A stretch of DNA of 64,000 nucleotides from Candidatus Eremiobacteria bacterium (GTDB lineage: Bacteria; Vulcanimicrobiota; Vulcanimicrobiia; Vulcanimicrobiales; Vulcanimicrobiaceae): positions 2,176,001 through 2,240,000 of the forward strand of contig CAVTRC010000001.1 of the NCBI GenBank assembly GCA_963737065.1. The letters run 5' to 3'. This document shows positions 10,358-27,033 of this stretch, piece after piece; positions within the stretch are counted from its first letter, which is position 1; every line of letters starts with the position of its first letter. Position numbers and translations under genes: made by a program. Under the pieces are notes generated by a model. It was given only the letters and a program-made list of their open reading frames with translations. It did not search any database and had not been told where the DNA came from.

Positions 10358-11932
10358 TTGGCGTCACGCCGGCTGCAAACGTCGATCTCGCGCCGTATTC
10401 GCATCCACACTGCCCTCAACGCCGAACTGGTGTACCGTCCGCGCTTTGGTCGATCGTTCAATCTGTATGCTCGCGGGCGGTTCGTCAACGAGGAAATGCA
10501 GATTGGATTTGTCGATGAGTCTGTGCCAAGAATCAGCCCTTCTGATGTTCTTGTCGGAATTAGCGGCGGGCGCTTCACCCTATGGCACTCGAGAGACGGC
10601 CGCCAGATTCGCTTGCGCGAATCGCACTTACTCTACGCCCTCCGATGGGCGCCGAACCTTATCCAATTCCTGACACTGCTGACGAACGATAGAATAATTT
10701 CGCCGAACCATATGCGATGGGGTCCCCTCAACGCTTTGCCCTTCTTGCCGCGGTTGACAAAAGGTCGCCTCGTCCTATCTCCAGCATTTTGGCTACTTGA
10801 CCTTGCAGCGTTCCGTTCGTCCGCGGACAGATTCGCATGGCTTCAGGAATTCGCTCAGCGCTGGAAGATGCCGCAGTATTGCCTCTTCACTCAAGGCGAC
10901 AAGACGCTTCCCATAAAAATTGATTCTCCGTTCGCCGTGGAAACAATTGATCGTGCATCGGTGGGAAACGAGGTGGCGGTAATTCAAGAGTGGTTTCCAA
11001 ATCCCGAAAGCGGATGGCTTAAGGGTGGTGACAGCCATTACAATGCAGAGCTTGTTGCAAGTTTTGTACGCGCGCGTAACATTGAACCATCGCCACGACG
11101 CCCCGCTATTCGTTTCAATCGCGTAGATCGTCAGAAGTTACCCTCGTCTGATTGGACAGCTGTTCGGATCTTTTGCGGCCAGTCGCAGACCGACAGAGTG
11201 CTCGAAGTACTGCACAATCACATCTCGGAGGTGCGAAAAGGGCCGCACTTTCGCAAATGGTTCTTCGTACGATACAACGCTCCAAGGTACCATCTGCGTG
11301 TACGCATACAAGCTCGCGATTGTGATGCCCGCGGCATCATCATGGCCGGAATCATGCAGGTATGCGACGAGGTAATCGCATCCGGTTTGGCAGACGAATA
11401 TGAGTTCTTCACCTACAATCGTGAACTCGAGAGGTACGGGGGGACGGCCTCGATTCCGGTTGTTGAATCGATATTCCACAAGAACAGCGAACTAGTAATT
11501 GCTGCGATGGCTTCTTGCAAATCGGACGGCGAACGGTTGAAGTGGTCCGCTTATCACGCTGCTCTCGTCATCCAGGGCCTTTTGACTCCTACTGAACTTG
11601 GCGAATGGGTGCGTAACCAACGGCGGCACTATAGGCTCGACACGTCGGAACGACAATTTGTAAGAGCGCTAGCACCGCTTAAGCAGGACAGGGCAACGCG
11701 AAGGTTCACTCGGGAAGCAAATCTGCTCGCACGTCTGGAACGCGAGGGCCATCTCTTAGTGTCGCGCGCGGAAATCATTTCATCCGTGCTTCACATCCAC
11801 TTCAACCGCTTCGGGATTATTGATGAAGAGGGTCGCGCGAGAGCCATCGCTTTCGCCCTCCTTGCTTCTTCCACGGAACGACGTCCAGCTTCGGAGGAAG
11901 TCACTGACCGTGAAGCTGTGACTGTATCGTAA
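10358..11932 (+). pseudogene. lanB: Class I lanthipeptide dehydratase (LanB), C-terminal half including the elimination domain; N-terminus missing
   Basis: AELVYRP, LPFLPRL...LVLSPAFW, WFFVRY..P.YHLRVR, YNRELERYGG, SVLHIHFNR. 524 aa versus roughly 1000 for a full LanB; no good start or RBS. Confidence 0.82.
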
Positions 11933-11940
11933 GGACATCA

Positions 11941-13524
11941 ATGAACATTGTATCCTGGCTTGCAGCTTTTATTTTCGCCGTCGCGGCTGTAATGGACAAT
12001 CCCTCCATCCCTCAAGTATCGTCGGTGGCAGTTCCATCAGCCGAAATCAAAGCAGATAATGCGCGTTGGACGGCGCTTGGTGTAAAGCTCCCACCGCCAG
12101 GAATTGTTGAGCCGCGCCCATATGGAACGCCTTATTCTGCGCGGTCTTTCGTGGTACCGTGGGCATGGTATCAGTCGTTTTATCAACAGCTGCATGATGA
12201 GGATGACGCGCAAGTACGCGCGTCGGATCTGCGAGCCGACCTTCCGCTCCTGCAATTCTTGATGCAGAGAACCTATGCCGGCTACGAGACTGCCGCATCT
12301 AAGGGCTGGAACTGGAACGACTGGTTTGAATCGTGGGACAGACATCTTGGTGAATACGGCGACCGATCCCTAACCCTGCACGAAGCGTTTGATCCTTGGG
12401 GGAACCTCGAGACCTTCCAGTTGGACAACCACTCCGGTGTGGCGTCCCTTCAGGATTTCATCAGCGGTTCTGTCAGCGCTCTACTGTCTGGCAAACCCGC
12501 TGGCGCTTGCACCGACCTCAGGATGGACTCCGGCTCGCAACGCCAGCTTCACGTTCACGACCTTGGACAACAGCCGCATGAAGTCCACGGATGGTCCGGT
12601 TCCACTTGGTACAACGCAACATACATCAGCTATCCGGCGCGTGATGGAGTCGCAGCGTCAATTACGTGTGCTGGACGTGCTATAGCGGTCCACGATGTGA
12701 GTACCCGCGCTACAGCATCCAATCGCGAAAACGTCCTTTATCTCAGTGGGACACCGTCATACAAGCTCCTCGGATCGCGCATCGCTCTTGTTCGGCTGCC
12801 GACGTTTACAGTAGCTAACGACAATGCAATTACACGGTTATTGAACAATCAGGCCGGCGTCGGAACCGAGAAGGCCGTGATCTTCGATCTCCGGGGAAAC
12901 GAAGGCGGCAACGCCCCAACGAGCATTCTAAAGCATTGGATTAGCGCTGACGCTCTTCGTAGCGCCTCAGGCAGTCACGAGCAGGTTTCTTCAGATTCGT
13001 GCTTTGCGAACGCCCTCTATTTTAATCTGCAGGAGCAACTGTCGGCGAACCTGTCGCCTCCGGTGAACGCGCAGACGCGAGCGTTTCTACAATCGATGGT
13101 TGATTCACTCGACTATCCTAACAACAACGATTGCCAAGTGAAGCCCTCGATAACGACTAAGGGTCCGGCATTAAAGGACCATGTGTTTGAAACGTCCACG
13201 CCCGTAAGCCGTACCCGGCTTATTGCTTTAGTCGATAACGGTTGCGGAAGCGACTGCGAGTATTTTACTAAGGTCGTAGCGGCCCTTCCGGGAAGTGTGA
13301 TTGCCGGTACAAGCACCTACGGCGTGATGGGATTTACGCAACCTGGCTATTTCGTTCTTCCGCATTCGCGCGTCGTATTTAGGCTCGCGCTAAGCCGCAC
13401 CGACAACTACGGCGACAGTCGTTCTGTCGACGGTTACGGCATTGCTGTGGACGTGCTACTGGCAACCACTGACGCTGAGTCCGACGCGTCGTTATACAAG
13501 CTAGCACAAGCGCTATTGCGCTAA
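11941..13524 (+). CDS. Secreted S41-family peptidase
   Basis: Signal peptide, IFDLRGNEGG, CGSDCE and GTSTYG motifs; AAGGA RBS. Confidence 0.8.
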   Translation: MNIVSWLAAFIFAVAAVMDNPSIPQVSSVAVPSAEIKADNARWTALGVKLPPPGIVEPRPYGTPYSARSFVVPWAWYQSFYQQLHDEDDAQVRASDLRADLPLLQFLMQRTYAGYETAASKGWNWNDWFESWDRHLGEYGDRSLTLHEAFDPWGNLETFQLDNHSGVASLQDFISGSVSALLSGKPAGACTDLRMDSGSQRQLHVHDLGQQPHEVHGWSGSTWYNATYISYPARDGVAASITCAGRAIAVHDVSTRATASNRENVLYLSGTPSYKLLGSRIALVRLPTFTVANDNAITRLLNNQAGVGTEKAVIFDLRGNEGGNAPTSILKHWISADALRSASGSHEQVSSDSCFANALYFNLQEQLSANLSPPVNAQTRAFLQSMVDSLDYPNNNDCQVKPSITTKGPALKDHVFETSTPVSRTRLIALVDNGCGSDCEYFTKVVAALPGSVIAGTSTYGVMGFTQPGYFVLPHSRVVFRLALSRTDNYGDSRSVDGYGIAVDVLLATTDAESDASLYKLAQALLR

Positions 13525-15082: not shown

Positions 15083-15511
15083 ATGGCTCTGATATACCCA
15101 GAGACCCGGTATGCGCCGCCGGACCTGGCCGACATCGCCGACGATGCCAATCGCGAGCGCCTAAGCCCAGCTGCCCTCGCGGCATTCTTCAATATAGTTG
15201 ACGCTTGGAAAATTGCCGCCGAGGACGCGATGCGTCTTCTCGGCGGAATGTCGAGCAGCACGTATTATAATCTGAAGAAGACGCCTAGGACTCTTGACGT
15301 TGATACGCTTCTTCGAACGTCGTACCTCGTCGGAATATACAAGGCGTTACACTTACTCCATTCGGATGCACTTGCAGATCGTTGGGTGCAGCTTCAGAAC
15401 CGAAACCCTATTTTCAAAGGGTCTACGCCGCTCGAATATATGATCCACGGCGGCATCCCAGCATTTCAGATAGTACGCCGACTTCTTGACGCGCGTCGCG
15501 GTGGCGTCTAA
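15083..15511 (+). CDS. Xre/MbcA/ParS antitoxin
   Basis: FFNIVDAWKI...LLGG, RTSYLVGIYKALH, W...N.NP.F.G.TPL...VRRLLDARRGG. Confidence 0.9.
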   Translation: MALIYPETRYAPPDLADIADDANRERLSPAALAAFFNIVDAWKIAAEDAMRLLGGMSSSTYYNLKKTPRTLDVDTLLRTSYLVGIYKALHLLHSDALADRWVQLQNRNPIFKGSTPLEYMIHGGIPAFQIVRRLLDARRGGV

Positions 15512-16184
15512 ACTTCCACCGACGACGCTCGTTAGGGCAAACGATACGCATCCGCTCATACCGACGCGGTTCGAAAACAGTGTGCTCGCAAAAATTGCCA
15601 ATTCAGACGAACATCTCGCCGCTATATTTGAACTCGATAATGCTACGAACGACCGGCTTTTAGCTGAAAATGGCTTCCTTCCAGGAATAGGGATCCACGA
15701 GCTCCTCTTCGGAGTGCCATATTACCGCATCGTTAACGCGGCGTTCACTCATGCCCATCCGCTTGGAAGCCGTTTCAATGGCCCGGATCGTGGAGCATGG
15801 TATGCCTCGTTCGCGATCGAGACGGCGCATGCAGAAGTTGCATATCACAAGACGCTGGAATTGGCTGAGATCGGCGTGTATGACGACGAGGTAACGTATC
15901 GCGATTATTTGGCCGATTTTAGCGCCGATTTGCACGATTTGCGTCTAGGCGATCCTGCGTTCACACCGTGCTTGCACCCTGACAAATATACCGATAGCCA
16001 AGACCTCGCGCGCGATTTGCTGTCGGTCGGCGCAATTGGCGTTGTCTATCCGAGCGTTCGGCATAAGGGCGGTACATGCATCGCGTGCTTTCGCCCCGCC
16101 GTCGTATCAAACGTTCGGGAATCAAAGGTTTACCGCTTCTCTTGGACTGGAACGACGACGCCCGCAATTGAAGAAGTTACCTAA
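15501..16184 (+). CDS. RES-domain toxin (NAD+ phosphorylase family)
   Basis: GSRFNGPDRGAWYA, TAHAEVAYH and VYPSVRH motifs; coupled to the antitoxin. Confidence 0.9.
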   Translation: MASKLPPTTLVRANDTHPLIPTRFENSVLAKIANSDEHLAAIFELDNATNDRLLAENGFLPGIGIHELLFGVPYYRIVNAAFTHAHPLGSRFNGPDRGAWYASFAIETAHAEVAYHKTLELAEIGVYDDEVTYRDYLADFSADLHDLRLGDPAFTPCLHPDKYTDSQDLARDLLSVGAIGVVYPSVRHKGGTCIACFRPAVVSNVRESKVYRFSWTGTTTPAIEEVT

Positions 16185-16501: not shown

Positions 16502-16760
16502 TCAGAAGAAAATTATCAACGGTAAGGTTGGCCTTCTGAACCTCGCCAAGCAATTGGGTAACGTTAGCGAGGCATGCAAGGTCATGCGGTACAGCCGCGA
16601 TACGTTCTATCGTATTCGTTGATATGTACGAGATTGGAGACGAAATGGCGCTGCTCGAGATCACCCAACGAACGCCGAACCGAAAGAACCGTTTGGCACC
16701 GGATGGTTGAGGGAATTGTTACGCTTGCGATCGAAGCAGCCGTCGTACGAGGCAGGTCCC
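16502..16760 (+). mobile_element. IS481-family transposase N-terminal remnant
   Basis: KKIINGKVGLLNLAKQLGNVSEACKVMRYSRDTFYR...PNRKNR...LAIE.PSY, with frameshifts. Confidence 0.8.
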
Positions 16761-17581
16761 GCAAACACGCAAGCCGAAGAGGAAAATCCGATCCACCGAC
16801 GCTCGAGCGAATGCCGAAGAGTTCTGCGCGAATCCGATCGCTTGCGGCGTTGCGAACGTCTGGATGAACAGGAAGCAGTCCGGTTACGTTATGATCGCCG
16901 CGATCGACTTGTGCGACAGCGGACGGAGGCTGTAAATCGGCTGCGGGATGCCGCATTGCGGCTGGCGATTGGACCGCTGCCCTCGAACATGACGACCGAA
17001 ATTGCATTGCAGAATGCAGCAGATCTTCTAAGCGGTCATCGCGGTAAGAGGTATACCGGCGATGCGCTTGCTGATGAGATCGACGAGGCGATCTCGGAAA
17101 TCCGCCGGCTCAATGCTGCAGTGAATGCAGCTGGAACGCCAACTGCGCCCTTTCGTTAAGCGCCTTGCGCCCGAATTGCTGGAGCTTCGAGGCGTTTCTA
17201 TTGTCGTTGCTGCCGGGATCGTTGGGCATGCCGGCAATATTCGCATGTATCGCAATGCCGCGAGCTTCGCGATGCGCGCCGGGGCGGCGCCCGTTCCGTG
17301 TTCGAGCGGTCGCAACGCGAGCGTCCGTGTCAACACCGGTGGTGATCGTCAGCTCAATCGATTACTCCATGTTATTGCGTTGGTCCAAAACCGCACGCGC
17401 AATCATCCGGGCCAACTCTATTATGCGCGTAAGCGAGCTGAGGGCAAGACGCATCGAGCTGCGATGCGTTCTCACAAACGGCAGCTGGCAACGGTTGTGT
17501 TTTATCGGTTGCAACCGATGCAAGACCGACTTGCGCGCAATAGTCAGAATAGTATTGAAGTCGCCGCCTAACAGAGTTGAC
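16760..17581 (+). mobile_element. IS110-family transposase remnant (N-terminus lost, frameshifted)
   Basis: Degenerate GKSD..DA, RRDRLVRQRT...NRL, GAAPVPCSSG, GGDRQLNRLLH, YYARKRAEGKT. Confidence 0.85.
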
Positions 17582-17618: not shown

Positions 17619-19734
<2,116 letters not shown>

Positions 19735-21905: not shown

Positions 21906-23771
21906 GTGATGCTACAGGATGTAGAACGCGCTGCGTTAAGCGCCGCAATGGATGCCCTTTTCCACCGTATGCCGCTCGTCTGGAACACCTTTCCGGGCGG
22001 CAAAAACGCTCCGCAATGGCATGGGCCCTTAGGATCATCCGCGCACCGCGTGCCGGCCGTCGCCGTTCGCAATGCGAAGGGCGACGCATCCCTACTTCGC
22101 GATCGAGCGATTCACGCTGGACTGGCTCGCCAACGATTGGGCCGCCGTCGAGTTTCATTCATGGACGCCGACGCCTGAAGATCCGCTCAAGCTTCGCTTC
22201 GCGCGCATCCTTCTCGAAGCCGGCCCAGGTGAACTCCGCCCGGATGCGATGCGACAATCCGTGCTCATCATGCGAGAATTTCTCGCGACGCTGCGTCTGT
22301 GCGCGATTCCCGTCCTCGACGGCGTCGGTGGGGTCGCACTCTTTGTGCCGTTCGACGACGCGCCCGAGTACGCACCCGTTCGCACGTGGCTGCACGCGCT
22401 CGCAAACGACGCGGCTGCGAAGTATCCGCAATACTTTACGACCGAGCCGAACAGCGCAGGCGGAGCGCGCGTGCACGTGCACGTTAAGTCAAATGCACCG
22501 GGCTTGTTCAGCGCGTTGCCGTACAGCTTGCGTGGTCCGATCGCCGCTACGCCGTCGCTGCGGTCACATGGGATGAACTCGCGTCATTGCAGCCCGGCGA
22601 ATTATGCATCGAGGCCGATCGTGTGCAAGAACGGCTGCAAACGATCGGCGACGTTTTCCAATCGCAACTCGACGTGATTGGCTCTCAATGTTTTGCAACG
22701 GTCGCTTTCAAGCAGCCGCCGGTGCTCGTTCCCGCGACGCAGCCGAGAGGCCATGTCATCCGCGCGGCAATGAAGATCTTGAGCGACGGACACTCGCGCG
22801 ACGCGCAAGCGATTCTCGATGCTGCGCTCGCCCGCGGACTGCTCACAAAGAACACGAGCGAAAAATACGTCTACATCGCATTGACGGAGTTTATTGCACG
22901 GAGTATCGGCCACAACCGCAAGCCGCCGATCGTCCAGAATCCCGATCGCTCGTTCCGGATGAACGAACCGCTCGATGATTGGCCCGACGTCATGCTCCCC
23001 GCGATCCAAGGCGACGATGAGGCCGCGCCCGCATTGATCGCGCGTTTGCGAAACACCGTTAGCGGAGACGATCCTGCCGCGTGGGAAGCGGCCGTTTGCG
23101 ATGCATTCGCACATGTTGGCTTTCGCGCGCAGCACATCGGCGGCCATAAAGCGCCCGACGGGATCATCGATGCGCAACTCGGACCGATTGGTTATCGCGC
23201 AATGGTTGAATGTAAGACGGGCGCCGGCGTTGTGACGCAGCCCGACGCGGTCGAAGCGTCGAAGTGGGCGGGACAATACAACGCGCAATACTGTACGCTG
23301 ATCGGGCCCGGTTTCTCCGAAGAAGTCGAACTCCATGACGAACTGCTTACGCACAAAGTGAGTGCATGGACGATCGACGATCTCGTTACCGTCTTGCAAG
23401 AACGGCTGAACCCGCAGGAGTTGCGTACGTGCTTCGCGCTCGGATTTGCCGAGGACGCCATAACCGACGTGCTGTGGGAACGCCGGCACGGCCGACGCAA
23501 GCGCGTTACCTATGTGGCCAACGTACTGCTACAAGACGGCTGGAATATGCAGGTCGCTGCGGCAACGCAAGCCGACCCCGCAAACGCCGCGCATTTAACG
23601 ATCGATGCGGCGATGATGCTCGTGCAGCAACGGCTCACTGCCGCAAACGCGACGCGCGCGTGCACGCGCGACGAAATCGAAGCGGCAGTCGTGTATCTAT
23701 CGAATGTGCTTACCGCTCGAGCGATGCGCCTCGACGATGGCAGCGTAGTCATCCTAACGCCACCGACCTAA
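21906..23771 (+). pseudogene. Fusion of degenerate LigD-type primase-polymerase domain, HARE-like HTH and Mrr-like PD-(D/E)xK nuclease; two apparent indels
   Basis: Three consecutive frames joined near 22080 and 22538. AVEFHSW, PYSLR and VTWDEL (LigD Pol); AAMKIL...ILDAALARGLL (HTH); WEAAVCDAF..VGF, PDG and VECKTG (Mrr-like). Confidence 0.7.
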
Positions 23772-23855
23772 AACATCACCGCGGACGTCGCCTTCAGGGC
23801 GCACAAAGCCCAGGTTGGCGATCGACGTCACACGAGACGGTTTTACCTAGGAACC

Positions 23856-25226
23856 TTACTTATCTCGAAGCTCAATCAATTCTCCACCATCGCTAGACGC
23901 CGACTCTCGGCAAAACGCAGCATGGTCGCGTTCCACTTGTTCGGCGTAAGTCAGCGTGAACGCGAGAATTGCAAGATCAAATGTTCGCCTCTTGCCCATG
24001 TATCCAGCGATTGCGGCTGCATCGCCTGAGCGAGCGTGACTCGTTGCGAGCGCCCAGCCGCACCAGTGAGCGTATTCCCGAAGCTGATATTGATCAGCCT
24101 CGTCGAGATCCGCTGAGGCCTTCATGTCTTTGAATTGACGGACATAAAAATCGCGGTCACCCGATTTTGCCCAGCCTAAAAACACGTCGCTTGCCGCTTG
24201 CATAAGGCGCTGACCGCGCACGACGCGTTCACCCTGGTTTGCATATTGTTCGCTCGAAAGGTATGGCTCGAGCACCGACTTCCTCGCTTCCTTGACCTGA
24301 AGGATGAGCATGTCGTCCTCGGCCGCCGCGAAAAGACCGACGCCGCAGCGCGTGCCTACGCTTCCCACTCCGACGACCTTAATTGCGTGATCGACGAGAT
24401 GATACCGGTTGAACAGCGCCCGAACGTCCGGCGCTAGCGTTGCGGCGTAGTCTGAAAAAATTTCCGGTAGGTCGAAACCTGTACGATCGGTCGCCGTCGA
24501 GTGAAACAGAACGGGGGCTCTTCCTTAAAACGGCGTTCACCGTTTGCAATTTCCGTGAATCGGTCAACGGCAGCACGGATCGAGTCCGTCGCTGCCTCGT
24601 CCGCTATACGGTTGCGACGAGCCCGCACCGCGGCGTCGCGTGCTTCGTTTAGGATGCCTCTCGCGTCCAGACGCATATAAAAAACTGTCGAGTGCGGGAG
24701 TCGCTGCTAAGTCATTCATTCGCGTCCGGTACGATTCCACGGCAGCAAGCGCCGCAATCGCGTTCGAACGTTCCTTAAAGCCATTCTGACGGCCGGCAAG
24801 GAGAACGCTCGTAACAAGTCGTTTTACATCCCACTCCCACGGCCCGCGAAGCGTCTCATCAAAATCATTCAGATCGAAAATTAGATTGCGTTCAGGGGTT
24901 GCGAATCCGCCAAAATTCAGGCAGTGAGCATCGCCACACGCCTGGACCATCAGACCGGATACGGGGCAGTCTGCAAGGTCGTCAGCCATGATGACCGCAG
25001 AACCTCGAAAAAATGTAAACGGCGTTTCCTGGATTCGGTCGTCTCGGAGTGGTAGCAATTCCTGAAGCCGACCTTCGCTGACGCGTTTGAGCAGGCCGAG
25101 GGGATCGCGAGACGGCGATGGCGACCAATTGCCTTGAGCAGCACGCGGAACGTTGGAGCGGAGCTTTTTGCCGGCGGCTAGCCGCATCATGCGGCTGAAC
25201 TCCGCGGCTTCATTTTCGGGCGACAT
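23856..25226 (-). pseudogene. DUF2252-family protein, frameshifted
   Basis: PFTFFRGSA, CGDAHCLNFG, FDLNDFDE..GPWEWDVKRL, GVGSVGTRC, LQVKEA, FYVRQ; split over several frames. Confidence 0.88.
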
Positions 25227-25371: not shown

Positions 25372-25635
25372 ATGCTCGATGCCCATCCAAGCGCAGGGAG
25401 CTTCTCCGACTTTCTCGCAGCCGCTCCGGATTGCATTAAGATCCTCGACCTCGAAGGTCGCCTGAAGGCAGTGAGTGCGAACGGAAGGCGCCTACTTGGA
25501 ATCGATGACTTTGCCCCCTTCGCTAATGCAGATTGGCTTGGGTTCTGGCAAGCTCGAGATCGTACTGCCGCTGCTCAGGCGATGCAAGAGGCACGTTCCG
25601 GGCGAGAAGGACGATTTATTGACTTTTTCCGCACC
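25372..25635 (+). pseudogene. PAS-domain fragment
   Basis: APDCIKILDLEGRL...NG..LLGIDDF...WLGFW...GRF, then truncated. Confidence 0.7.
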
Positions 25636-26056
25636 CTGCGTCGAATTGCCAGCGTGGGAATCGCAACGCGAGACCGTCAGGAACAGCGAGTAGTTGTCCC
25701 TGCCTCACCATCTGATTGACTACGGGCCGCGATCGCCGAACGAACGTTCCCGCTTCGTCAGAACTGAGCGCATCTGCAAATGTTAGAGCGCTAAGCGTGT
25801 CGACACGATCTTGATTGCGTGCTCGCAGCGCAGCGGCGTCATCCTTTGTTGAAAATATGTAGCTTCTTACTGTTTCGAGTACTGTGCGAAGTCGCCGTTC
25901 ATCGACGTCAGTGAGAAGGCTCTGGTAAATGGAAAACGACGCGTCATGACCTGACGCTCCAAGGGCCACCGTCCTCTTAGCACGGCGCGATACGAAAGTG
26001 GCAGTTTTCCTTCTCTGCGTAGCGGTTCTTTTGACAGTAGAAGATTTCCGAGGCAT
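25616..26056 (-). pseudogene. HTH_17/excisionase-like DNA-binding protein (antitoxin-like), 3'-truncated
   Basis: LSSDEAG.FV.RSRPVVNQMVRQGQLLAV......FPRWQFD, ending at the junction with the PAS fragment. Confidence 0.6.
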
Positions 26057-26077
26057 CGCTAGGGTAATACCAAGCCT

Positions 26078-26113
26078 CGTAAAGTTCGTAAAGCTTGTAA
26101 AGCCCGTAAAATG
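26078..26113. repeat. Four 9-bp direct repeats upstream of the HTH gene
   Basis: CGTAAAGTT CGTAAAGCT TGTAAAGCC CGTAAAATG. Confidence 0.7.
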
Positions 26114-26361
26114 GTCCCTGCCTTGGTGACGACCGGCGGTCCCGGCGTTTCCTGTCGGACGTCGTTGCCGCAACGCCAGCCGATCGCGCAAACGCCGCGC
26201 ATGTAACGCTCGAGCGATTCGGCTCGACGACCGCAGCTTAGTCATGCTGTCGCCATTGCAAAGAAGCAATGCCCCCGGTAGTTGGATGGCACAAGCGATC
26301 CGAAAGGTCCGGTCTAACCTAATATCTCGACACCTACGATGCGGGCGTCTCACGCCGACCA

Positions 26362-27033
26362 CTAAAGCCTATAGGTTCTCACCTCTCGGTACTCATCGAT
26401 CGCCGCGCCATCCCAAAAAAGTTCAATCTCCCGAACGGTGTCGGCAACGTCTTTGACTGCCAGTGGCTTAAATGTCGCATAGCAGGTTCCACCGGGTGAT
26501 CGAACGCTGTCGTACCACACGCCTTGGTGGCCATTGGCGCGCAGCCGCGCTCCCGCCGCCTGCGCTGACGCATAAGCGTCAGGGTCGTAGATCGCGGGCT
26601 CTTTAAGATCATCAGCACCGCCGCGCCGGATGTCCAAATGAGCCGACTCATCCAACGAGAGTTCAAGTCCGTATCTAGGCACGAGTGTCGGCTCGGTCAT
26701 GTACGTCGCTCTAAGCTTTTTGGCGGCATGGTAACTAGACTCTCGGACCGCAACGAGAAATGCGTCCGCAGTGTAAAGCACGCCGTACGTTCCTGGAGAG
26801 AAGCGGCTTCCGCCGATCGTAAGAAATGGACCCATAACGATCGAAGCCTGAGGGCCAACGTAGCGGTCTTCAGGCGCCACAAGCGAGATGTTTAGCAATG
26901 CATCCGCGGCCATTGGATCCGTTAGCGCGCGTAGCGCTAGCAGCTCTTCTAAGTCCTCTGGCCGCTCAACGAGATCTACTAGAGCCGCTAGCGGGTGCCG
27001 CGGGTCCGGGACAACTCGATGGACCCCTACCAC
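26362..27033 (-). CDS. RES-domain toxin
   Basis: GSRFSPGTYGVLY, AVRESSYH and WYDSVR motifs. Confidence 0.88.
   Translation of the reverse strand: MVGVHRVVPDPRHPLAALVDLVERPEDLEELLALRALTDPMAADALLNISLVAPEDRYVGPQASIVMGPFLTIGGSRFSPGTYGVLYTADAFLVAVRESSYHAAKKLRATYMTEPTLVPRYGLELSLDESAHLDIRRGGADDLKEPAIYDPDAYASAQAAGARLRANGHQGVWYDSVRSPGGTCYATFKPLAVKDVADTVREIELFWDGAAIDEYREVRTYRL

Follow-up and report, generated by a model that had tools for sequence, protein, structure and literature searches.

What is a LigD-type primase-polymerase (AEP) domain that lacks its catalytic residues doing in front of a winged helix and a restriction-like nuclease? The question is raised by a locus at positions 21906–23771 of a 64,000-nucleotide stretch of DNA (hereafter, the window) from a Candidatus Eremiobacteria bacterium (assembly GCA_963737065.1, contig CAVTRC010000001.1, positions 2,176,001 to 2,240,000), which a first-pass annotation had read as a candidate DNA-end-sensing defence or repair protein. 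The reading that we prefer, with a probability of roughly 0.55, is that the gene at this locus has been inactivated, that it belongs to a family whose members are single polypeptides, and that this family represents stand-alone, type IV-like defence nucleases that are independent of non-homologous end joining (NHEJ) and carry a pseudo-polymerase accessory domain.

The interrupted gene and its protein family

Three overlapping open reading frames (ORFs) on the plus strand, in frames 0, 1 and 0, span the locus. The intact homologue P0002 (630 aa) tiles all three in a tblastn comparison, as residues 22–65, 60–221 and 206–625, and joining the pieces across two frame breaks yields a stop-free product of 61 + 149 + 411 = 621 aa. 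The single protein of about 620 aa proposed in the first-pass annotation was thus recovered, with the breaks, which had been put near 22080 and 22538, lying at about 22086–22092 and 22536–22539. The elements of the locus, all on the plus strand, are as follows.

21906–22178, plus strand: ORF1, 90 aa, frame 0
22072–22677, plus strand: ORF2, 201 aa, frame 1
22587–23771, plus strand: ORF3, 394 aa, frame 0
about 22086–22092, plus strand: frame break 1 (frame 0 to 1), one extra base relative to intact homologues, placed by DNA and fragment alignment
about 22536–22539, plus strand: frame break 2 (frame 1 to 0), one base short, at the codon after LRG, placed by DNA and fragment alignment
21906–22089, plus strand: piece 1, N-terminus of the AEP-like domain, frame 0, 61 aa
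22090–22536, plus strand: piece 2, core of the LigD-type AEP domain, frame 1, 149 aa, with a match to PF21686
22204–22218, plus strand: RILLE where AEP motif I (hhDhD) would stand, with neither of the two metal-binding Asp
22312–22341, plus strand: VLDGVGGVAL at the place of motif II (SGxxGxH; SxxxxxH), Ser replaced by Asp and His by Ala
22468–22494, plus strand: RVHVHVKSN where motif III (hD) would stand, with His instead of Asp; the resulting HxH pair is kept by most of the family
22536–22742, plus strand: last part of the AEP domain (VTWDEL, GDVF), then a linker of low conservation
22743–22970, plus strand: winged-helix segment, HARE-HTH-like by hhalign (PRGHVIRAAMKIL...FRMNEP), with an Atlas feature lead of 0.76
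23073–23309, plus strand: Mrr/FokI-like PD-(D/E)xK nuclease domain, all four catalytic residues present (E..PDG..ECK)
23320–23771, plus strand: C-terminal domain of ~150 aa that matches no known family, with conserved W..R.HG..KR and Q columns; the stop codon ends the domain
26137–26255, plus strand: relic of the 3' end of a second family copy, DNA identity 87% to 23553–23605 and 83% to 23711–23762

A search with ORF3 returned 124 relatives, the named ones from metagenome-assembled genomes (MAGs) of Eremiobacteraeota/Baltobacteraceae; among the 120 listed, at least 93 carry the Pfam domain LigD_Prim-Pol (PF21686), with lengths of 443–684 aa; the intact homologues of this architecture measure about 600–690 aa. 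A search of one genome per species (GTDB) gave 145 candidate stretches, of which 105 could be confirmed; the 80 loci that were kept come nearly all from Vulcanimicrobiota/Eremiobacterota. The AEP and C-terminal modules are contiguous on one strand at 71 of these 80 species-representative loci, and three of the 80 have tandem copies. The fusion of an AEP domain, a winged helix-turn-helix (wHTH) and an Mrr-like nuclease is therefore conserved, and its parts are not always encoded by separate genes in homologues.

In one clade the protein is divided into an AEP protein of 260–340 aa and a wHTH-nuclease protein of 350–385 aa, encoded by adjacent head-to-head genes. Eight such ORF pairs (L088–L094 and L096), with ~90 nt between the aligned start codons, were found among the loci, and a ninth (G265) appears in the search table only; at L099, AEP-like ORFs lie beside the nuclease gene, and at L097, G053 and G251 both modules are on one strand. 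The split AEPs share the degenerate motifs of the fused ones. The nine split-type nuclease genes (the eight pairs and L099) form one clade with SH-aLRT support of 100, nested among fused forms, when the C-terminal module is placed on a quick maximum-likelihood tree (73 rows, rooted at the midpoint, with L066 as a long branch); AEP-less forms arise at least twice on it. This placement suggests that the fused form is ancestral, as far as a midpoint-rooted tree can show the order of fused, split and AEP-less forms. The head-to-head gene pairs of the split clade indicate that the AEP and the nuclease belong together in function, although they can be encoded apart.

Two further features of the family stand apart from this comparison. 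The ~90-nt spacer of the split loci (for example, at about 7363–7445 of L090) contains a palindrome, GAGAC-N8-GTCTC in L088–L090 and, in the other split subclade, GAGCCATGGCTC in L094, GGGCCATGGCCC in L092 and an imperfect version in L091; its arms change together, giving it an operator-like appearance. Protein P0174 (924 aa) has an extra C-terminal domain of ~230 aa (WFGYGxWxAPYWF..EPGG) without a Pfam match, which is a separate neighbouring gene at L022:2596-3294 (plus strand) and L068:4240-4899 (minus strand).

A degenerate polymerase domain and a conserved nuclease core

The kinship of the N-terminal region with the LigD polymerase (Pol) domain, first noticed as a pattern of short motifs, is borne out by profile and pairwise comparisons. 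PF21686 matches window ORF2 with E 3.5e-13 and all 57 aligned homologues (the set to which fractions of 57 refer below), with a best E of 1.3e-35. P0002 covers the full profile (4–254 of 254, E 4.9e-27) and aligns with the Mycobacterium tuberculosis (Mt) PolDom structure 2IRU over residues 7–259 (phmmer, E 1.2e-10), so that the homology to LigD Pol (PF21686; 2IRU of M. tuberculosis, 2FAO of P. aeruginosa) extends over the whole domain. The family domains nevertheless score 60–125 bits against PF21686 versus 275–500 bits for canonical domains, and since the window piece reaches 45.3 bits with the NCBIfam equivalog ligD_pol, far under its cut-off of 214.7, the window protein is not a canonical LigD.

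The positions of the active-site motifs were mapped by three independent alignments that agree with one another: phmmer against 2IRU, MAFFT against the canonical Pol paralogues of the genome itself, with FDLDPG / SGSKGIH / VDY at the three motifs, and the Pfam profile. Residue roles at the metal, nucleotide and phosphate sites follow section 7 of a LigD review (PMC8656161). No Asp occurs at any of the three metal positions (columns 108, 110 and 199) in any of the 57 members. The place of Mt Asp137 (column 108) is Leu or a gap in the main (L47, F5 and others), that of Asp139 (column 110) is Glu in 45/57 (then T3, Q3, S3 and others), and that of Asp227 (column 199) is His in 51, Val in two, Gly in two, Ala in one and Gln in one. 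Likewise, the place of Ser172 (column 145) is Asp in 48/57 and never Ser, the place of His178 (column 151) is Ala in 49/57 and never His, and Lys66 and Thr236 are also lost. A motif I Asp-to-Leu mutant of another AEP is reported to be inactive (PMC5862659).

The loss extends to the pocket that binds the 5'-phosphate. The SNLDK-like strand before the YY motif, which carries the pocket residues N13, K16 and K26 in Mt, is present in the genome's own canonical Pol paralogues and in 0/57 family members; the family proteins start ~12–20 residues before the YY motif, and their alignments begin at Mt residue ~27. With this strand absent, DNA-end sensing in the manner of LigD Pol, as the first-pass annotation had proposed, is not supported. 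What the domain retains are EFHxW, the motif III Asn (QN), the PYSLR arginine (Mt Arg244, 55/57), an aromatic residue at the place of Phe63/64 (55/57) and, less consistently, His111 (36/57). The replacement residues at the former motif sites are E110 (45/57), D145 (48/57), H197 (52/57) and H199 (51/57).

The same picture emerged from a far larger sample. When 1.84 billion representatives were searched with a profile built from the stand-alone AEP proteins, 98 proteins were found at E up to 1e-30. Of the best 150 matches, 145 were new 50%-identity representatives, and these were aligned by MAFFT with positive controls for a motif census. The Asp triad is absent in 116 of the 145 (105 have none of the three Asp and 11 have the motif III Asp only); the other 29 are eight canonical proteins, which are the weakest matches, and 21 fragments outside the motifs. 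As far as sequence can tell, the family as a whole has a CATALYTICALLY dead AEP domain, which has lost all metal-binding Asp, the Ser/His pair and the 5'-phosphate pocket. The degenerate DxD and KTSG..G.H motifs seen in the window copy are thus a family-wide trait, the triad being absent in 57/57.

The nuclease domain is, in contrast to the AEP domain (mean column conservation 0.75 vs 0.51), the best-conserved part of the protein; the winged helix (0.68) and the C-terminal domain (0.62) lie in between. Mrr_cat (PF04471) is detected in window ORF3 at E 0.013 and 16.1 bits, below the Pfam cut-off of 21, and in 47/57 homologues at E up to 0.1 (best, 1.2e-6). When the profile of the AEP-less form was compared with the PDB, the FokI cleavage domain was found at E 0.0023 (20 bits, 80 columns, residues 413–493), with HxGG..PDG..(D/E)xK in register; a single sequence alone gives only E 0.26. 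The relative P0096 has a precomputed match to the FokI cleavage domain PF09254, and the Atlas feature neighbours, treated as leads only, are clusters for Mrr_cat, FokI_cleav_dom and HARE-HTH. The catalytic residues E401, D425 and E442 are kept in 57/57 members and K444 in 56/57, and all four are present in the window copy, in agreement with the E..PDG..ECK motif first read from it. With catalytic residues that are invariant or nearly so, the nuclease looks active.

The two remaining parts of the core are less readily assigned. The Pfam HARE-HTH profile (PF05066) matches neither the 57 members nor anything in 16 scanned genomes of the bacterial family, carriers included, whereas hhalign of the winged helix against nine genuine HARE-HTH domains gives P 4.3e-4 and a probability of 34% over 66 columns. 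On these figures, the HARE-like character proposed for the helix-turn-helix is plausible without being established. No match was found for the last ~150 residues, either in Pfam searches of the 57 members or in a comparison of their profile with the PDB.

Distribution, end joining and genomic surroundings

Of 247 good genomes surveyed across the phylum with an AEP-free profile, 84 contain the family, with 79/190 genomes in bacterial family f1, 3/4 in f2 and 4/18 in f3; none of the other 15 bacterial families sampled yielded a member. It is thus confined to three families of Eremiobacterota/Vulcanimicrobiota, uncultured soil bacteria. Its occurrence within them is patchy: apart from the window genome, one of five genomes of the same genus carries it, and elsewhere a genome may hold up to seven copies or fragments, several with in-frame stops. 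The same-genus copy in G244 is only about 65% identical in DNA to that of the window and is too diverged to be of use for defining the indels.

This distribution bears directly on a role in repair. Ku is present in 206/247 genomes of the phylum and in 180/190 f1 genomes (this tally and the genome search table include a few genomes flagged unpublished), and is confined to some families, including all three that carry the AEP-nuclease family. Within f1, the family occurs in 6 of the 10 Ku-less genomes, which are 91–98% complete, vs 73 of the 180 with Ku. Five of these Ku-less carriers were checked, and four of them have no PF21686 match, and hence no LigD-type AEP, besides the domain of the family itself. 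Because the family persists in genomes that lack Ku and canonical Pol, recruitment by Ku, a role in NHEJ and a decoy function towards the host LigD are all disfavoured. No Ku or ligase occurs among the neighbour clusters of the 80 loci. The window itself holds neither, as had been noted; the Ku and ATP-ligase domains of the genome all lie outside it. The best reading of these data is that the AEP-nuclease system works independently of Ku, LigD and NHEJ, and the repair half of the original proposal is not supported.

The genome does contain a canonical NHEJ locus outside the window, at C1:1392073-1394698, with Ku, a LigD Pol domain and an ATP-ligase domain. The Ku-adjacent LigD Pol has two TGA codons and a frame problem, so the canonical LigD may be disrupted or mis-assembled. 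Two more canonical Pol paralogues are encoded at C1:2401829-2402830 and C1:33399-34340.

The surroundings of the family genes are those of an accessory gene. There is no conserved partner: the largest neighbour cluster, a repeat-rich family with four members that have NHL or Vgb_lyase propeller domains, is found at 17/80 loci, and the genes that neighbour the family gene in the window do not reappear beside it at any other locus. No DNA-methyltransferase domain was seen in the Pfam tables for 150 ORFs within 2.5 kb at 78 loci. Modification-dependent type IV enzymes are expected to stand alone, without a cognate methyltransferase (PMC11037411), and the absence of a methyltransferase fits this logic. 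Toxin-antitoxin, defence or mobile-element ORFs make up 18/150 within 2.5 kb and 14/150 at 5 kb or more, vs 2/150 in 11 evenly spaced regions of the window genome, the one genome that served as background (Fisher p 2.6e-4 for near and 3.3e-3 for far ORFs); RES, HipA, MazF, PIN and Fic modules are among those with which the family co-locates. Because it is patchy, multi-copy, often decayed and partnerless, and lies in surroundings rich in toxin-antitoxin, defence and mobile genes, the family resembles accessory or conflict genes in its behaviour more than it does genes for repair.

The window locus conforms to this pattern, and the description of its surroundings as an island rich in toxin-antitoxin genes is upheld by two RES toxin genes and by the IS110 and IS21 insertion sequences (IS) that flank it:

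15083–16184, plus strand: RES toxin gene with an Xre/MbcA-type antitoxin directly upstream (15083–15511)
16707–17571, plus strand: IS110-family transposase split over two frames (16707–17159 and 17125–17571)
17619–19416, plus strand: IS21-type pair after the IS110 element, rve integrase (17619–18650) and IstB (18643–19416)
26362–27033, minus strand: second RES-domain toxin gene

The RES toxin was considered as a specific partner and rejected: RES-like ORFs lie within 8 kb of a family gene at 9/80 loci, yet the window genome has ~7 places with RES genes anyway. A scan for promoters and terminators around the window gene gave nothing above shuffled sequences, and no tRNA was found in the window. 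Further upstream, at 10358–13524 (plus strand), a lantibiotic-dehydratase-like ORF contains only the end of the N-terminal profile (464–648 of 649) together with the C-terminal domain and is followed by an S41 peptidase; this is possibly a truncated or unusual locus for a ribosomally synthesized and post-translationally modified peptide.

Probable inactivation, proposed function and alternatives

The window copy, the sole family copy in its own genome, most likely became a pseudogene recently, within an island of toxin-antitoxin and IS genes that is itself in decay. The adjoining gene for a DUF2252 protein (23856–25226, minus strand) is also disrupted, being split into ORFs of 220, 65 and 170 aa: the full Pfam profile (1–391) is matched at 23907–25070 with two TGA and one TAA inside, and its middle part (profile 122–191) fits another frame better. 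There are thus at least four frame disruptions in 3.3 kb (21906–25226), two in the window gene and at least two in DUF2252. Outside this region, no more than 6 of 93 homology-matched genes of the genome, covering about 137 kb, are multi-frame, and the clustering at this locus has a Poisson P of about 1.7e-5. The relic of a second family copy, 2.4 kb downstream of the window gene, lacks 115 nt between its two blocks and runs antisense to a 248-aa ORF at 25616–26362. Since the read-through copy keeps 39/40 invariant columns, the inactivation would be recent.

It is possible, if doubtful, that both frame breaks are assembly or consensus errors and that the organism carries an intact working gene, an alternative that touches the pseudogene part of our reading and leaves the function of the family aside. 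The window genome is a two-contig MAG, six family loci in other long-read MAGs are likewise split (L043, L057, L060, L061, L064 and L072) and the genome's Ku-adjacent LigD Pol shows stops or frame problems of its own; a look-up of sequencing runs for the genome listed none. Both breaks are single-base and lie beside short C runs, and the read-through sequence, with departures at 8/93 near-invariant columns, stays within the range of intact members (0–22). Yet the C runs are just two to three bases long, disruptions are rare elsewhere and clustered here, the neighbouring DUF2252 and IS110 genes are disrupted too and a decayed relic lies nearby; in addition, the first ~20 residues of piece 1 have diverged from the relatives, with the near-invariant Y13 replaced by R.

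For the family as a whole, we propose that the wHTH, the nuclease and the C-terminal domain form a core module that serves, on its own, as a type IV-like nuclease for restriction or defence. Foreign DNA, which may be modified, would be recognised by the winged helix and cleaved by the FokI-like domain, probably after dimerisation, by analogy with FokI. The AEP domain would act as a pseudo-enzyme, an accessory module that binds nucleic acid or protein and tunes recognition or restrains the nuclease; as a module, it may be fused, provided by a separate divergent neighbour gene, or lost. It may gate the nuclease, as the first-pass annotation had inferred. Of the defence and repair roles between which that annotation left the choice, defence is the better supported, whereas repair and end sensing are not supported.

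Several observations weigh against this proposal. Eight of the 80 loci, one of them at a contig edge, carry the nuclease module without an AEP in the flanks, and the AEP is therefore dispensable for the core activity. The enrichment of conflict genes has no near–far gradient (18 vs 14 of 150, p 0.58), and its background is a single genome, with categories that we assigned from Pfam names. PADLOC-DB 2.0 gives only a weak REase_II match for P0002 (E 0.003) and window ORF3 (E 0.00079) and none for P0013, P0015 or P0076, and no model of a described anti-phage system fits the family. Viral contigs yielded 0 relatives among 72 pattern matches and hence no direct phage link. The AEP fold is itself predicted from sequence homology alone, and the replacement residues E110, D145, H197 and H199 are conserved above the domain average, ranking 30–58 of 256 AEP columns, so that the AEP site may be re-tooled, not dead.

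This last point leads to a set of alternatives that differ in what the AEP domain does. If the Glu/Asp/HxH set were a new metal or ligand site, either catalytic or sensing a small molecule, the protein would have two active centres or an allosteric switch. The replacements sit exactly at the former motif III (H197, H199), II (D145) and I (E110) positions, the split AEP proteins retain the same set, and Arg244 and the Phe63/64-like aromatic are kept. However, one subclade has R-V or Y-G in place of HxH, 12/57 members lack E110, and the other nucleotide-binding residues (S172, H178, K66 and T236) are gone, which makes such re-tooling rather improbable in our estimation. A related, tentative idea, which we hold to be unlikely though not far-fetched, is that the LigD-derived domain is a pseudo-enzyme sensor of a phage-specific nucleic-acid intermediate, nucleotide or protein, and licenses the FokI-like nuclease; the domain keeps its cleft (the aromatic, the Arg and the new Glu/Asp/HxH cluster) but has lost catalysis and the DNA-end pocket. 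If this were true, the pseudo-AEP would be a new class of sensor for single-gene immunity, and the fused and split forms would offer a natural two-component test system.

Other alternatives concern the purpose of the whole protein. A selfish addiction module, in which the nuclease is the toxin, the AEP its linked inhibitor and persistence owes nothing to defence, would match the patchy, multi-copy distribution with many decayed fragments, the company of RES, HipA, MazF, PIN and Fic modules, the adjacent two-gene variant with its palindromic, operator-like sequence between divergent starts, and the faster evolution of the AEP relative to the nuclease. Yet eight loci have the nuclease module without an AEP in the flanks, and a cell should not tolerate a toxin that has no guard; typical type II toxin-antitoxin pairs are small and co-directional, most loci have the fused form, which also appears ancestral on the quick tree, and wHTH plus PD-ExK is a restriction-enzyme architecture. 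We give this alternative little credence. Least credible, and in our view very improbable, is an accessory role in NHEJ or in the repair of double-strand breaks, in which the LigD Pol-like domain would guide the nuclease to ends occupied by Ku for processing. The homology of that domain, the Ku gene beside LigD Pol and ligase domains at C1:1392073-1394698 and the restriction of Ku to some families of the phylum, all three carrier families among them, might be cited for it. It is opposed by the Ku-less carriers, most of those checked being also without canonical LigD Pol, by loci that never adjoin Ku or ligase in the 80 clustered, by the loss of the 5'-phosphate pocket and all AEP catalytic residues, by the mismatch in distribution (84/247 genomes for the family vs 206/247 for Ku) and by the multi-copy, often decayed state of the genes.

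Comparison with known systems places our preferred reading, a type IV-like nuclease with an accessory pseudo-polymerase, among restriction enzymes. Like Mrr-type type IV enzymes, the family proteins are encoded by a stand-alone gene and have a winged helix followed by a PD-ExK nuclease; unlike them, they add the N-terminal pseudo-AEP and the C-terminal domain of ~150 aa. The stand-alone winged-helix-nuclease fusions of PMC11037411 are reported to be modification-dependent, a property that the present family may or may not share; the words primase and LigD have 0 occurrences in that text. The nuclease bears a tentative likeness to the FokI cleavage domain (1FOK/2FOK; PF09254) yet comes without the FokI recognition domain. 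With LigD Pol the family shares EFHxW, the PYSLR arginine (Mt R244), the motif III Asn and the aromatic at the Phe63/64 place; it differs in the absence of Asp137/Asp139/Asp227, Ser172/His178, Lys66, Thr236 and the N13/K16/K26 pocket, and is unlinked to Ku, ligase or phosphoesterase. The PrimPol-reverse-transcriptase hybrids of PMC12439943 also place an AEP-superfamily domain inside a phage-defence-linked protein; their PrimPol is active and belongs to another AEP clade, in contrast to the LigD-type domain without catalytic residues described here. Full-text literature searches, whose coverage excludes subscription journals and bioRxiv supplements, listed no paper with a plain description of an Mrr/FokI-like nuclease in fusion with a LigD-type AEP. 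The new part would be the accessory pseudo-AEP on an otherwise type IV-like wHTH-nuclease.

In public sources, P0005, P0007, P0008, P0011 and other members are named 'DNA primase' or 'bifunctional non-homologous end joining protein LigD'. These names mislead, because the members lack the catalytic residues and a ligase domain, and counting them as LigD would overstate the NHEJ capacity of Eremiobacterota, a phylum that has no cultured model for defence biology. If our reading is true, a DNA-repair polymerase domain has been recruited as a non-catalytic module of a restriction-like nuclease, and the known components of single-gene immune nucleases would gain a candidate domain for sensing or regulation. 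The naturally occurring fused, split and AEP-less variants make the role of the AEP domain in these bacteria directly testable.

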